A stretch of 64,000 nucleotides of DNA from a virus (taxonomy: Duplodnaviria; Heunggongvirae; Uroviricota; Caudoviricetes). Below the pieces are notes generated by a model. The model saw nothing but the letters and a program-made list of their open reading frames with translations. It was not told where the DNA came from and searched no databases. The first letter of the stretch is position 1. Each line of letters begins with the position of its first letter. Below are positions 1,127 to 28,270 of this stretch, one piece after another. Both the position numbers and the translations under genes were made by a program. The stretch lies in the IMG/VR virus record IMGVR_UViG_3300033067_000531; one strand, given 5' to 3'.

Positions 1127-1219
1127 TGGTACCTGCACTAGGATTCGAACCTAGAATACTCGCTAATCTGGCGATAAACAGTGTATAAGACTGGCGTTTT
1201 ACCATTAAACTATACAGGC
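1127..1219 (-). tRNA. tRNA with UAU anticodon (nominal Ile) and long variable arm
   Basis: GCCTGTA/TGCAGGT acceptor, D-arm GTTT/AAAC, loop CT-TAT-AC, 23-nt variable region with TCGC/GCGA hairpin, CTAGG-TTCGAAT-CCTAG T-arm, ACCA end. Confidence 0.85.
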
Positions 1220-1486: not shown

Positions 1487-1575
1487 TGGAGGAGGGATGG
1501 CAGAATCGAACTCCAACCGCTTTCGCAGTCCATCTGTTTTCAAGACAGTGCTGGTCCCAGACCAGATAACCCTCC
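1487..1575 (-). tRNA. tRNA-Ser(TGA), atypical architecture
   Basis: Loop CT-TGA-AA, long variable arm, GTTCGATTC T-loop, CCA end; 5-bp D stem and one extra nucleotide in the T/acceptor 3' strand. Confidence 0.82.
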
Positions 1576-1585
1576 ATTGTTTGTA

Positions 1586-1676
1586 CCATATCAAAACCCA
1601 TTAGCGGAATCGAACCGTTGCGCCTCCTGCAATAGGAAGCGGATGCCCACAGAGGTTCTAATGAGCTTTGATATGG
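1586..1676 (-). ncRNA. tRNA-mimic ncRNA candidate (T-loop plus 19-bp closing stem)
   Basis: CCATATCAAAGCTCATTAG pairs with CTAATGGGTTTTGATATGG (with G-U pairs). The interior has CGG-TTCGATT-CCG and a CTTCC-TATTGCA-GGAGG hairpin. Confidence 0.65.
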
Positions 1677-1787: not shown

Positions 1788-1838
1788 ATTGTATCAGAAC
1801 CAAAGATTCTGGCAACTACACTGTTGTTTTGAAACAAC
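1788..1838 (-). promoter_or_regulatory. sigma70-type promoter TTGCCA-16-TACAAT with upstream GTTG-N8-CAAC palindrome
   Basis: -10 at 1788-1793, -35 at 1810-1815, palindrome at 1823-1838. The downstream leader resembles the one at 577-620. Confidence 0.7.
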
Positions 1839-2619: not shown

Positions 2620-3051
2620 TTAGATTTTCTCCACAGTTACGCCTGCTTTCTTGAGGAACTCCAGACCGGCTTCGTCACGATAGCTATTACGATAATATAC
2701 AGAATTGATTCCAGACTGGTAGACCAGTTTGGCACAGTCAAGGCACGGTGAGTGAGTAACAAATAGAGTAGCACCCAACCCAGATTCAGTAGACCTAGCG
2801 AGTTTTGCAATAGCATTTGTTTCAGCATGTAATACCTCTGGTTTAGTTTTCAGGTAAAGTTCATCGCCATTATCATCATATTCCATGAATTCGCAGTTGT
2901 TATCCCAACCAGAAGGCATTCCGTTGTAACCGATAGAAACGATGCGGTCTTCTTTCACAATTACCGCACCAACATGTAATCGAACTGCGGAGGACAGTTC
3001 AGCAAAAGTCTCCGCAGTTTTCATAAAAGCATCACGAAATTTTTGTTTCAT
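2620..3051 (-). CDS. cd: dCMP deaminase
   Basis: HAETNA and SPCLDC zinc-deaminase motifs; GYNGMPSG. Confidence 0.93.
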   Translation of the reverse strand: MKQKFRDAFMKTAETFAELSSAVRLHVGAVIVKEDRIVSIGYNGMPSGWDNNCEFMEYDDNGDELYLKTKPEVLHAETNAIAKLARSTESGLGATLFVTHSPCLDCAKLVYQSGINSVYYRNSYRDEAGLEFLKKAGVTVEKI

Positions 3052-3188: not shown

Positions 3189-3668
3189 TTATTGTACCTC
3201 CTGATTCATACGAACAAATCCAGTTTCTTCCAATTTTTGTTTATAAGCATTGGCGTGACGTTCTTCAACCTTCTTCAACGCAGCGAACCTTTTTTCTGCG
3301 AGAGCCAAAACTTTACGGAATTGTTCCGCATGTTCTTTTGATTCTGCTATCTGGTGTGCAGCCTCTCTTTCGGCTTCTTGATTGACTTCAACCTGAGCCT
3401 CATGTTGCATATTTGGATACATCACGGTAAACTCATGCGTTTCACCTTCAATGGCAAGTTCCAAACACTTCTGTGTATCTGGTTTACCAATCAAAAGTTC
3501 AAGATGACCCCAAGCATGTAACAACTCTTGGTCTGCGGTATGTTCAAAGTGTTTTGCCACTTCTTCATAACCCTCTTGACGAGCCAACTTGGCAAAATAA
3601 CGGTACTTGATGTGTGCTTGAGATTCGCCGGCAAATGCGGCCTCAAGATTTTTAATCGTAATAGACAT
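3189..3668 (-). CDS. rbr: Rubrerythrin (ferritin-like di-iron domain, no fused rubredoxin domain)
   Basis: NLEAAFAGESQA..KY..FAK.A..EG, ELLHA, GETHE..MYP and E..HA di-iron ligand pattern. Confidence 0.9.
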   Translation of the reverse strand: MSITIKNLEAAFAGESQAHIKYRYFAKLARQEGYEEVAKHFEHTADQELLHAWGHLELLIGKPDTQKCLELAIEGETHEFTVMYPNMQHEAQVEVNQEAEREAAHQIAESKEHAEQFRKVLALAEKRFAALKKVEERHANAYKQKLEETGFVRMNQEVQ

Positions 3669-3829: not shown

Positions 3830-4216
3830 ATGGCAAATTGTACTATCTGTAATAAACTACTTTCTGGCCGTCAAACAAAATTCTGTGGACGTAAGTGTAG
3901 AAACGGTTATATAAATTCTAAACATAAATCCTACGACCTACAAAAAGACAAAGGAATGAAGAACAAACTTAAACTTTTGGACTTAAAGGGTAAGTATTGT
4001 CAAGTGTGTGGTTATAACAAAAATACGGCGGCATTATGTTTTCATCACACAAGAGACAAATTATTTGGAATTGATATTAGGAAATGTTCCAACACAAGTT
4101 GGAAAAAATTGGTGGAAGAAGCCGACAAATGTATCGTTCTTTGTCAAAATTGTCACATGGAAGAACATTATCCGGATCATATGGTACGACCTGCTGGATT
4201 CGAACCAGCCCCGTAA
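3830..4216 (+). CDS. HNH homing endonuclease (free-standing)
   Basis: CQVCGY...LCFHH...KCIVLCQNCHMEEH HNH/zinc-finger pattern with an N-terminal CxxC..FCGRKC motif. AAGGAG RBS; the only convincing plus-strand gene. Confidence 0.85.
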   Translation: MANCTICNKLLSGRQTKFCGRKCRNGYINSKHKSYDLQKDKGMKNKLKLLDLKGKYCQVCGYNKNTAALCFHHTRDKLFGIDIRKCSNTSWKKLVEEADKCIVLCQNCHMEEHYPDHMVRPAGFEPAP

Positions 4217-4256
4217 GAATTATGAGTTCTCGGCACTACCTCTATGCTAAGGTCGT
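4182..4256 (-). tRNA. tRNA-Ile2(CAT, lysidine type)
   Basis: ACGACCT/AGGTCGT acceptor, loop CT-CAT-AA; the GCTGGTTC..CCAGCAGG T-arm matches the Ile2 type rather than Met. Confidence 0.85.
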
Positions 4257-4266
4257 ATTGTATTAC

Positions 4267-4836
4267 TTATAATCGCACGAATGCTTTGTATATATTATAC
4301 TGTTTTGTGATGGCCATGTCAACCAGTGCAAGGTTGTCAAACATTCGGTCATCATAGTATGCACGGATAGTACCTTTGGTTGCCTGTACTGAGGCTTCTT
4401 TCTCACCATAACCCAAGGTAACAACAGTCATACCATTCTTCTTGGCGATATGCTGCATGACTTGGTTCTCGGATAGACATTGAGTATATAAGGTTGTTGC
4501 ACCTTTCATCATTGCCCATGTAGATGCACGAATGAATAACTCTTGTCCTAAACCTTGTCCACGATGGTCTGGTGAAACGGTAAAACCCATTTCTGCGACA
4601 CCTTTTTCATTCAATGATACGTGTACAGTACCAACAAACTTTTCGTCCTTTTCCACAACAAACCACATGTTTGTATCACCAAACTCTTGTAGTGAATTGG
4701 TCAAATAGTCAATGATGTTTTCGTTGGAAGGATTATAACCAAAACGAAGATAACGGTCGTGGTCAACAATATCAACCAAAAAGTGGTCGAACAGTTTACC
4801 CTCGTCCGATTCATACATGATTTTGCGTGGAATCAT
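4267..4836 (-). CDS. GNAT family N-acetyltransferase
   Basis: AEMGFTVSPDHRGQGLG acetyl-CoA motif A; ENQVMQHIAKKNG motif B. Confidence 0.88.
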   Translation of the reverse strand: MIPRKIMYESDEGKLFDHFLVDIVDHDRYLRFGYNPSNENIIDYLTNSLQEFGDTNMWFVVEKDEKFVGTVHVSLNEKGVAEMGFTVSPDHRGQGLGQELFIRASTWAMMKGATTLYTQCLSENQVMQHIAKKNGMTVVTLGYGEKEASVQATKGTIRAYYDDRMFDNLALVDMAITKQYNIYKAFVRL

Positions 4837-20062: not shown

Positions 20063-21421
20063 TTACATCAAGTTCTTAACTTGGAAAATACGGTAGTACT
20101 TGTTAGAACGAGCCTTCAAGATACCGTTACCAACATCAGTACCTTCCGCAAATGGGTTCGCAACCATGCCGTAGCGAGTCTTGAAACCAATCTTTGGTTG
20201 GAATGTGTGTTGGTCAACTGCACGAACCATTTGCAATGGAACGTATGGGCAGTAGAACAAACCAGCATCGTAAGGAGAAGAACCCTTATAACCGATTGTC
20301 ACCAATTCTTGGTTGCTTGTGTAGCCACCGAAGTATGGGTCAATGTACACTTTGATACGACCGTGCAACATACCAGCGAAGGTGTTACCTGTGTCGTCAA
20401 CTTGCAAGTCAGCAGACAAAGCAGGTGTGTATTGCAACACGCCAGCCATAGCCATAGCAGAAGCAACGTCAGATGATACAATCATCACGTTACCCTTACC
20501 ACGACGAGTTTGCTTAGCGATAACGTTAGCATCACGTTCGATTTGGAAAATCAAACCCTTGAAACGTTCAACAGACCAACGACCGTTAGAGTCTGTGTCC
20601 AAGTCGAAAGTACCAGCAGTTGTAACACCGTATTGAGCACCTGCAACAGCAGTAGCGTAGATAGTACGGATAACTTCACGGTTGATTTCAGCCAAGATTT
20701 CTGTGGACAGAATGTTGGACAATTCTGTTTCAGCGTCCAAACCATGAACTGCCTTCAAGTCTTGTGCCAATTCTAGAGAGTATTCTGCCTTCAATGCACG
20801 GCTCTTAGCAGTTACAGTCACCTTTTCGATGCTGAATGCCATTTGGTTGAACGCAGATTCCAATGTAGAACCCAAAGATTCAGCAGTAGCAGTAGACATA
20901 CCGATACCGGATGTAAATGCGTTAGCTGTCAATGAACCAACTGGGTTAGTCAATGTATCACCAGTTGTTGTGTTTGCGAAACCGTAGTCTGTACGTGTTT
21001 GAGAACCTGTACCAGAGAATTGAGTATTCGCTTCATTGAAGAATGCTTCGTTACCGTCACCAGTACCAGCAGTACCTTGAGCGTTATACTTAGCACGCAT
21101 TGCGAAAATCAAGCCTGTTGGGCCAGTCATTGGTTGAACACCAGCAACGTCATAAGCAATCAAGTTTGGCAACGCACGGCGTACCAAAGAAATCAAGATT
21201 GGGTCGAAGTTGTTGATACCACCACCAGTAACGTTTGTTGGTGTGCCAGAAACAGCAGGTGAAGTTTCGTTCAACTGTGCAGCTGCAGCAGCCATTTCAC
21301 GTTGTTGGTTTTCCAAGATAACGGCAGTAACTGCCTTCTTGTACGGATCTTTAATAGAGCCGATTTCAGAGTGTTCCAAAACTGGAGCCCATTTTTGTTG
21401 TAGTTCTTCTGATAGAAACAT
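20063..21421 (-). CDS. gp23: Major capsid protein
   Basis: KW.PVL, DPILISLVRRA.PNLIAYD.AGVQPMTGPTGLIFAMR, SRALKAEYS.ELAQDLKAVHGLDAE, TFQPKIGFKTRYG. Confidence 0.98.
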   Translation of the reverse strand: MFLSEELQQKWAPVLEHSEIGSIKDPYKKAVTAVILENQQREMAAAAAQLNETSPAVSGTPTNVTGGGINNFDPILISLVRRALPNLIAYDVAGVQPMTGPTGLIFAMRAKYNAQGTAGTGDGNEAFFNEANTQFSGTGSQTRTDYGFANTTTGDTLTNPVGSLTANAFTSGIGMSTATAESLGSTLESAFNQMAFSIEKVTVTAKSRALKAEYSLELAQDLKAVHGLDAETELSNILSTEILAEINREVIRTIYATAVAGAQYGVTTAGTFDLDTDSNGRWSVERFKGLIFQIERDANVIAKQTRRGKGNVMIVSSDVASAMAMAGVLQYTPALSADLQVDDTGNTFAGMLHGRIKVYIDPYFGGYTSNQELVTIGYKGSSPYDAGLFYCPYVPLQMVRAVDQHTFQPKIGFKTRYGMVANPFAEGTDVGNGILKARSNKYYRIFQVKNLM

Positions 21422-26587: not shown

Positions 26588-28270
26588 TTAGGCTGCACCA
26601 ACGATAGTAGTGAAGTCTACACCAGTACCAACAGCAACAAAGTTCAACTGAATGAAGTTGATAGAACGTGTTGGTTTGATATAAATGTCACCAACAAAAC
26701 GGTTTGTATCAATTACACCAGGAGTATTGTTTGTTGTGTCGCAAACAACTTTAAAGTCTGTGATACCACGACGACCTTGTACATCACGTAGGAAAGGAGT
26801 AATTGTTGCAATGAACTGAGCACGTGTGATTTCATCGTTTTGTTCAAACAATGAGAACTTAGCAGCAGTAGAGATTGCCTTTTCCAATGCAATAAACAAA
26901 CGGCGAACGTTGATACGGTCAAACGCAGATGGTCTGGAAGTCAATGTCTTGTCACCAAACAACACAATACCTTGTCCTGGGAACGACAACACAGGGTTAA
27001 CACCAATCATATACAGTGTGTTACGTTGTGTTTGGTTTGGATTCCAAGACATTTTGATTGCGTTCTTAATCTGTCCGCGTGTGTAACCAGCTGGAGAGTA
27101 CCAAGGATCAGATACGTTGTCTGTGTTAACACATAGACCAGCGATATCACCGTTCAATGGAACCCAACGGTATTTGTTGTTGTATTTGTCGTATTGGTAT
27201 TTCCAACCAGAGTCCGCAAATGCATATGTGGAAGTTGTACCAACATCAAACAACCAGCTAACGATGTTGTCATATTCACTACCATTTTGGTTCACAACAT
27301 CAGAATATTGTGGAGAAATGAAAGCCACACAGTCACCACGTGGTTGTGCGATAGATGTGATAATATGATTCTGAACGTTTGCTGTTGCATCACCAGTCAA
27401 AATCAAAGAGATATCAACCTGTTCTTTGTTTTGGAAGTAATCAAAACCATTTTGAATATCTGCTTCTGTTGGTGTAGTATCAACACCACTTGCCAAAACC
27501 ACTGTCTGAATGTCAGTCAATGTTGCGAAAGCAGTTGTCAATGGACCACCCCAAGTGGATGATTGTGATACGTAATCAACTGGGTCGATAGCGTAGATAT
27601 ATTTTGAGTTATTGAAAATTACATTCTTGTAATAGTTGGAAACTCCGTTGATTGTGGCATTAGATGCCTTAGAAACAAAAGCGAAAGTTTCTAGAACTGT
27701 ACCACGTGTACCTGTGAACGCACCGTTACGGTCGATAACTGCAATATGCATTTCATCGTTACCACCACCAGCAGCTGTACACTGTTCAGAAGTACCTGGA
27801 ACGTCATTGAAATATGCTCTGTATGTCCATGTTAAGAAGTCGTCTGTGTTATCACAAACGGAAACCGACAAAGAATTACCTAGTGTACCTGGATAACGTG
27901 CAATGAAAGCACCGTATGTACCGTTGTTGTTCTGGTTTAGATAAGATGCTTGGAACACATCACTGTTTTTCACCAACAATGCTGTACCACCTGTCGCATT
28001 TTTTGCACTTGAACCCACAACTCGAACAACATTCAAGTTGTTTCCGTATGCTAAAAAGTTTGCTGCTGTCAGAAATGAAATTGCTGATGCTTCTGTTGGT
28101 TTGCCAAAACGATTTACTAAGTCTACTTCGCTTGAAATTTGTGTAATTTTTTCTACTGGACCCCAATTAAAGTAACCAGCGAACGCACCGGCAGTGGTGG
28201 ATACAGAAGGAACAACAGTTGTTTGATCCACTTCTGATACACTAACGCCTGGAGATAGTTGAAACGCCAT
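26588..28270 (-). CDS. gp18: Tail sheath protein
   Basis: LSPGV.V.EVD.T, F.WGP, W.SPAG..RG.IKN, G..LFGDKT, FDRINVRRLF, IKP.RSINFI.LNFVA. Confidence 0.97.
   Translation of the reverse strand: MAFQLSPGVSVSEVDQTTVVPSVSTTAGAFAGYFNWGPVEKITQISSEVDLVNRFGKPTEASAISFLTAANFLAYGNNLNVVRVVGSSAKNATGGTALLVKNSDVFQASYLNQNNNGTYGAFIARYPGTLGNSLSVSVCDNTDDFLTWTYRAYFNDVPGTSEQCTAAGGGNDEMHIAVIDRNGAFTGTRGTVLETFAFVSKASNATINGVSNYYKNVIFNNSKYIYAIDPVDYVSQSSTWGGPLTTAFATLTDIQTVVLASGVDTTPTEADIQNGFDYFQNKEQVDISLILTGDATANVQNHIITSIAQPRGDCVAFISPQYSDVVNQNGSEYDNIVSWLFDVGTTSTYAFADSGWKYQYDKYNNKYRWVPLNGDIAGLCVNTDNVSDPWYSPAGYTRGQIKNAIKMSWNPNQTQRNTLYMIGVNPVLSFPGQGIVLFGDKTLTSRPSAFDRINVRRLFIALEKAISTAAKFSLFEQNDEITRAQFIATITPFLRDVQGRRGITDFKVVCDTTNNTPGVIDTNRFVGDIYIKPTRSINFIQLNFVAVGTGVDFTTIVGAA

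Follow-up and report, generated by a model that had tools for sequence, protein, structure and literature searches.

AUA is a classic weak point of decoding in bacteria, where lysidine made by TilS is normally required to read it. One tRNA gene in a 64-kb phage sequence (called the window, meaning the whole stretch of DNA that was analysed) has the anticodon UAU and carries in its variable region a further hairpin whose loop displays GAU. The locus therefore raises two questions: which amino acid is inserted at AUA by this tRNA, and what the additional hairpin is for.

The window belongs to a T4-like myovirus and encodes gp46/gp47-like nuclease subunits, a helicase, the major head protein, portal, sheath and large terminase. 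In gp46 the closest cultured relatives share only about 50% identity with it; they are the Melnitz phages of Methylophilales, cyanophages and the Stenotrophomonas phage DLP_6. At the left end of the window ARAGORN called ten tRNA genes, all on the minus strand, and among them the 93-nt gene at 1127-1219 (-) as tRNA-Ile(tat). The parts of this gene and the site upstream of its run are as follows.

1127 to 1219, minus strand: tRNA gene of 93 nt with UAU anticodon, A73 and encoded CCA (ARAGORN; Rfam RF00005, 60 bits).
1196 to 1210, minus strand: D arm GUUU-AAUGGUA-AAAC, of class I type, with U12:A23 (Rfam; sequence).
1178 to 1194, minus strand: arm 1, the decoding anticodon arm, CCAGU-CUUAUAC-ACUGU, with UAU at 1185-1187, U33 and A37 (sequence).
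1175 to 1177, minus strand: 5' linker UUA, from arm 1 to arm 2 (sequence).
1160 to 1174, minus strand: arm 2, the extra arm, UCGC-CAGAUUA-GCGA, with GAU at 1166-1168 and C:G as third pair from the loop (sequence; family statistics).
1155 to 1159, minus strand: 3' linker GUAUU, of normal variable-loop length, its final base being position 48 (family statistics; 15:48 covariation).
1138 to 1154, minus strand: T arm CUAGG-UUCGAAU-CCUAG (Rfam; covariation).
1788 to 1815, minus strand: promoter-like site TTGCCA-16-TACAAT, preceding the run formed by tRNA-Gln, three Ser tRNAs and tRNA-Ile(UAU) (consensus scan only).

The gene is a real tRNA. The Rfam model RF00005 matched 1127-1219 over its full length with 60.0 bits (E 1.7e-10, gathering score 29), and the alignment held a 19-nt insertion that was placed in the variable region. 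The acceptor, read directly, is GCCUGUA/UGCAGGU with a G1.U72 wobble, the arm 1 stem has a C27.U43 mismatch, the variable region of 23 nt is UUA-UCGC-CAGAUUA-GCGA-GUAUU, and there is a 7/5 acceptor/T branch with a T loop. An earlier, sequence-only reading of this DNA had described a cloverleaf with the loop CU-UAU-AC and A73 and a 23-nt variable region with a TCGC/GCGA hairpin. All of these are present, and the ARAGORN isotype, which it had named as a check, is tRNA-Ile(tat). A minimum free energy fold of the single window sequence did not recover the cloverleaf (z -1.16), as is usual for tRNAs; the fold was set aside and covariation was used for the structure instead.

The order of the run is tRNA-Gln, three Ser tRNAs, tRNA-Ile(UAU), an 80-aa ORF and tRNA-Cys, and the sequence TTGCCA-16-TACAAT at 1815-1788 is its putative promoter. 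The 80-aa ORF has no Pfam match. When it was used to find the locus in 31 viral contigs, a tRNA(tat) of 92-98 nt was found at the same place in 23 of them; the ORF is present also in relatives without the tRNA(tat).

Several other elements were seen in this part of the window. A tRNA with a UGA anticodon (Ser) at 1491-1575 (-) was missed by ARAGORN; its best Rfam match is tRNA-Sec with 45.7 bits, just below the gathering score of 47, and its place in relatives is held by a tRNA-Ser(tga) of 90-92 nt. It may be an 8/4-type tRNA-Ser, a type reported for phages (PMC5389517). Adjacent to it, at 1576-1673 (-), is an element of 98 nt; its terminal stem has 16 bp and its inner hairpin 8 bp, and it contains the T-arm-like GGUUCGAUUCC. 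Its folding energy has a z of -3.6, with none of 200 shuffles as stable, and it has no Rfam match at E <= 1. It is apparently missing in some relatives, where the gap from tRNA-Gln to tRNA-Ser(tga) is only about 35 nt. A CAU tRNA (Met or Ile2) lies near the tRNA-Ile(UAU), at 4182-4256 (-), and overlaps the 3' end of a Cys-rich 128-aa ORF at 3830-4216 (+) that has no Pfam match; further genes near it encode a dCMP deaminase (2620-3051), a rubrerythrin (3189-3668) and a GNAT acetyltransferase (4267-4836).

The meaning of AUA in this phage was read from codon exchange. ATA is a minor codon in the window genes, with 135 of 1144 Ile codons (12%; 6.9 per thousand), and is absent from the major head gene at 20063-21421 (452 codons) and the tail sheath gene at 26588-28270 (560 codons). 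The window genes around the terminase were compared with 80 related contigs that are 82-94% identical in TerL, an alignment of ATA codons to homologues that the sequence-only reading had also called for. Window ATA aligns to ATA in 30%, ATT in 28.6%, ATC in 12.8%, Val codons in about 10% and Leu codons in about 7% of the cells. The three Ile codons together make up 71%, a profile like that of window ATT (72% ATT, ATC or ATA in all) and ATC (74%) and unlike that of TTA and CTA, which align to ATA in only 1.6-2%. Two ATA codons of gp46, at residues 59 and 346, fall where Ile is invariant in Melnitz, Syn33 and DLP_6, and a third is in an I/V column. The first of these is the ATA in KPFRK-I-NKPQ for which the earlier reading had given Ile in homologues, correctly as it turns out. 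The codon exchange in the 80 relatives and the invariant Ile positions in gp46 show that AUA is read as isoleucine. The window tRNA is very probably an AUA-reading tRNA-Ile; among the roles previously suggested for it, an Ile-charged AUA decoder is the one favoured by the exchange of ATA with ATT and ATC and by gp46.

The same data bear on the suggestion that the tRNA is of class II type and is charged with Leu, on the strength of A73 and the long arm, or with Ser, so that AUA is mistranslated or recoded. A73 and A15:U48 are indeed features of E. coli tRNA-Leu too. There is also a precedent in nematodes, where nev-tRNA-Ile(UAU), with a long arm, is reported to be charged with Leu (PMC3333845). 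The codon evidence goes the other way: 41% of the cells aligned to window ATA are ATT or ATC and 30% are ATA, against about 7% for Leu codons; the TTA and CTA rows are almost free of ATA, and Ile is invariant at the gp46 positions, so that Leu-mischarging is left without support. No sign of Leu or Ser recoding of AUA was seen in the 80 relatives or in gp46. The anatomy does not agree with the class II-like arm of the sequence-only reading either. A UAU anticodon is combined with a 4-bp D stem and 7-nt D loop, an extra arm with a 7-nt loop, long single-stranded linkers (3 and 5 nt) and a conserved GAU that the sequence-only reading had missed; G73, typical of tRNA-Ser, is absent, and the long arm is lacking altogether in some tRNA-Leu of related phages. 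Charging with Leu or Ser is thus most improbable, and the gene should be annotated as tRNA-Ile(UAU), not as Leu/Ser-like and not as a suppressor tRNA. For annotation this means that the tRNA-Ile(UAU) gives no sign of recoding in this phage.

The window tRNA is part of a large, mostly phage-borne family, defined by a UAU arm followed by a hairpin of 3-5 bp with the loop YAGAUNR, a linker of 5-6 nt, A73 and an encoded CCA, and it fits this definition on every element. The design occurs in hundreds of phages; viral contigs yielded more than 130 distinct sequences, and bacterial genomes about 56. The bacterial members come from a scan of prokaryotes with one genome per species, which gave 81 matches, of which about 56 are true members, against an estimate of about one expected by chance. 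Some are single genes, for example in Marinobacter nauticus, Microbulbifer elongatus and Azospirillum melinis, and others sit within tRNA arrays of Pyrinomonadaceae and others. Two body types occur in the family: the D arm is normal in one, to which the window tRNA belongs, and shortened in the other. A blastn search with the window tRNA region and one relative gave no full-length match in 50,697 cultured phage records, and a scan for an exact 32-mer found nothing in viral contigs. A few members have odd decoding loops, with C33 (CCUAUAC) in loci L327 and L328 and G37 (UUUAUGC) in L309.

The GAU-bearing arm is tied to the UAU anticodon. In a forward scan of viral contigs the UAU loop, T arm and CCA were fixed, and the variable region and positions 72 and 73 were left free. 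At least 84 long tRNA(tat) were found, and among the matches listed the extra loop held AGAU in 77, CGAU or UGAU in five and a different sequence in two. The scan in the opposite direction started from the loop CAGAUUA, correctly spaced from a T arm, and found an upstream UAU anticodon arm in 105 of 111 distinct matches. Together the two scans show that the UAU arm and the GAU arm go together both ways in phages.

Arm 2 is both conserved and covarying. Its statistics were obtained from 134 distinct family sequences, many of which are related and not independent events, so that the percentages overstate the number of such events. The stem has 3-5 bp and the loop 7 nt with the consensus Y-A-G-A-U-N-R: position 32 is C or U, position 33 is A in 97%, and G34, A35 and U36 are found in 99%, 99% and 100%, while position 37 is U in 63% and A in 23%, and position 38 is A in 84% and G in 15%. 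The 5' linker varies from 1 to 6 nt; the 3' linker is 5 nt long in 102 and 6 nt in 25 of the 134. The third pair of arm 2 is C:G in 93%, compared with 14% for arm 1, 6.9% for other tRNAs of the same loci and 55% for the phages' own tRNA-Ile(GAU), and the two pairs next to the loop vary, with four and five pair types. In a MAFFT alignment of 109 thinned sequences the four pairs of arm 2 are 94% paired with compensatory changes in all four, and the hairpin noticed earlier is therefore more than chance. All four helices covary in this alignment, with 91-99.8% pairing, the arm 1 stem covaries in the family, and shuffled and slid controls score far lower than the whole structure. Covariation is also seen between position 15 and position 48, with which the 3' linker ends: among the 78 members that have a normal D arm, 58 have A15:U48 and 13 have G15:C48, which shows that the tRNA core is canonical. 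A73 is present in 133 of 134 members. U33 and A37 of arm 1 are kept in these sequences, and both follow from the TTATA search patterns and the filter.

These results also bear on whether the gene is used in translation at all. It could be a decoy, as the sequence-only reading had offered as one option, or a regulator or a decaying gene; Mukai et al. found most allo-tRNA(UAU) variants inactive in E. coli (PMC5389517), and ATA is rare in this phage. Set against this are the covariation of all four helices and the syntenic place kept inside tRNA operons, neither of which lends support to a decoy, and the retention of U33, A37, the T loop, A73 and CCA in more than 100 distinct sequences, several of these features being demanded by the search patterns. 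A gene without a role in translation is accordingly very unlikely.

A further possibility is that both arms decode, arm 1 reading AUA and, after a swap of arms, arm 2 reading AUY. Either arm could take the anticodon place as far as the junctions go, arm 1 having a normal D-stem junction and arm 2 being followed by a variable loop of normal length (5 nt) before the T arm. Decoding by arm 2 is nevertheless extremely improbable: A33 in 97% of its loops removes the U-turn nucleotide, its stems have only 3-5 bp, and a normal tRNA-Ile(GAU) is carried by the phages.

Other phage tRNAs were compared for similar arms. Other long-armed tRNAs of the same loci (Thr, Trp, Gly, Lys, Asn, Cys and others) have mostly small-loop hairpins, several of GNRA type, and none of those examined has its own anticodon in the extra arm; a general mimicry of cognate anticodons by phage extra arms was thus checked and not supported. 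GAU occurs anywhere in the variable region in 2 of 54 Tyr, 11 of 102 Leu and 35 of 140 Ser tRNAs. Plain class I tRNA(UAU) are at least as easily found as the two-arm kind, with at least 62 distinct short genes in viral contigs. Among the 62 listed the first acceptor pair is G:U in 27 and A:U in nine, and A73 is favoured here too. In the two-arm family G1.U72 or A1-U72 is likewise the commonest first pair (positions 1219 and 1131 in the window), and weak pairing at 1:72 may be common to phage AUA decoders in general. When the body without arm 2 was compared by nearest neighbour with 1402 labelled phage tRNAs, no enrichment of tRNA-Ile was found.

Some unusual tRNAs were seen in the related loci. 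Many tRNA-Leu of these phages are only 77-78 nt long and class I-shaped, with a variable region of about 6 nt and A73 (L005 6749-6825, L033 3292-3369 and others). tRNAs with a CUA anticodon, of amber-suppressor type and called tRNA-Pyl by ARAGORN, occur in relatives (L006 6731-6805, L031 2134-2209), with six in all across the loci compared. Short extra hairpins in the variable region, several with GNRA-type tetraloops, are found in Thr, Trp, Gly, Lys, Asn, Cys, Pro and Glu tRNAs (L052, L059, L087, L110, L139, L147 and others).

What arm 2 does was considered from the requirements of IleRS. The bacterial Ile identity set comprises A73, C4-G69, U12-A23, C29-G41, G or lysidine at 34, A35, U36, t6A37 and A38 (PMC9976931). 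The E. coli IleRS charges tRNA-Ile(UAU) inefficiently, for which Trp905 is responsible; the enzyme of Mycoplasma mobile has Arg at this position (PMC3575796). In the window tRNA, A73 and U12:A23 are present and C4:G69 is replaced by U4:A69. Arm 1 has U34, C38 and A29:U41, and is thus without G34 or lysidine-34, A38 and C29:G41; arm 2 supplies G34, A35, U36, A38 and the C:G pair. The IleRS of the four bacterial carriers examined keeps the Trp (RCW motif), and TilS is present in all four, so that their IleRS is of the ordinary kind.

The best explanation, put forward tentatively but with nearly an even chance of being right, is an AUA-reading tRNA-Ile in which arm 2 is an identity element for IleRS. 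Arm 1, with UAU, U33 and A37, would read AUA as isoleucine in an elongator tRNA. Arm 2, a second anticodon-type hairpin, displays G34-A35-U36, has A38 in most members and carries a C:G pair in the position of C29:G41; an ordinary host IleRS, poor on plain UAU tRNAs, would accept the tRNA through it, and decoding and identity would then sit on separate arms. Since arm 2 supplies the signals that are missing from arm 1, and other long-armed phage tRNAs do not repeat their own anticodon, we infer that arm 2 stands in for the anticodon arm in recognition by IleRS. That IleRS in fact binds arm 2 is the inferred step and, at best, a little doubtful. The fuller proposal is somewhat doubtful: the two arms may split the jobs of the anticodon, arm 1 going to the codon and arm 2 to the host IleRS, perhaps after a swap on the D stem, so that AUA is decoded without TilS or a specialised IleRS. 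Independence of TilS is plausible for the window tRNA; the nearby CAU tRNA could be tRNA-Ile2, and TilS is encoded by all four bacterial carriers examined.

Several observations count against the IleRS step. Class I synthetases normally dock with the variable region facing the solvent, away from the enzyme, and arm 2 therefore needs a rearrangement or arm swap to reach the anticodon-binding domain. A real tRNA-Ile has U33 and A37 (t6A), while arm 2 has A33 in 97% and mostly U37, so that the t6A determinant is missing; the strictly conserved A33 is not explained by mimicry. Plain short tRNA(UAU) are common in phages, which shows that arm 2 is not generally required. ATA being a minor codon in this phage and the tRNA body being without an isotype signal also count against the step.

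Some of these facts favour a reading in which the tRNA still decodes AUA as isoleucine and arm 2 serves another role, for a U34-modifying enzyme, a phage protein, processing, protection of the tRNA against host defences that target it, or stability of the fold. IleRS would then use A73 and other elements, as it presumably does for plain phage tRNA(UAU). Short tRNA(UAU) that lack arm 2 are common in phages, the arm 2 loop is unlike a true Ile anticodon loop at positions 33 and 37, and it stands in a variable region, with its covarying 15:48 pair, where class I synthetases normally do not reach. This reading does not account for the retention of precisely G-A-U, A38 and the C:G third pair, nor for the link of the arm to UAU in 105 of 111 matches. 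We know of no candidate partner for arm 2; the adjacent 80-aa ORF is found in relatives without the tRNA too and has no Pfam match. Such another role is a real possibility, but decidedly doubtful.

If arm 2 is an identity element for IleRS, AUA decoding would have a third solution, in a tRNA that brings its own GAU recognition signal; to our knowledge, the few UAU tRNAs described so far depend on a changed IleRS. Such a tRNA would also be a case in nature of identity uncoupled from decoding, of direct use for genetic-code engineering. Even if the IleRS mechanism fails, there remains a widespread and strongly conserved five-arm tRNA, and its fifth arm calls for a partner. No paper in the literature searched, which lay mostly outside the subscription journals, names or describes a tRNA(UAU) whose extra arm bears GAU.

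The closest known systems share parts of this design. The TilS-independent tRNA-Ile(UAU) of Mycoplasma mobile (PMC3575796) and, as reported in papers cited in PMC9976931, that of lactic acid bacteria likewise use UAU to read AUA as isoleucine and have A73. They are plain tRNAs of class I, charged by an IleRS whose residue 905 is Arg or Lys instead of Trp, whereas the two-arm tRNA adds the GAU arm and the four bacterial carriers examined keep the IleRS Trp and have TilS. The allo-tRNA(UAU) of Mukai et al. (PMC5389517) likewise combine a long extra arm with UAU and occur in metagenomes and tRNA arrays, including those of Acidobacteria. Their branch is 8/4 or 9/3, they carry G73 or U73 and their predicted identity is Ser, in contrast to the 7/5 branch, A73 and GAU loop of the window tRNA, and the branch and A73 rule out the window tRNA as an allo-tRNA. 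The nematode nev-tRNA-Ile(UAU) also has UAU and a long variable arm; it is eukaryotic and reportedly Leu-charged (PMC3333845), whereas the codon evidence in the window is for Ile. The bacterial tRNA-Ile(GAU) is similar to arm 2 itself: arm 2 and its 5-nt linker resemble the anticodon arm and variable loop of that tRNA, with CUGAUAA against CAGAUAA or CAGAUUA and with C29:G41. Arm 2 has A33 where that tRNA has U33, U37 in most members and a shorter stem, and an additional arm with UAU lies upstream of it.
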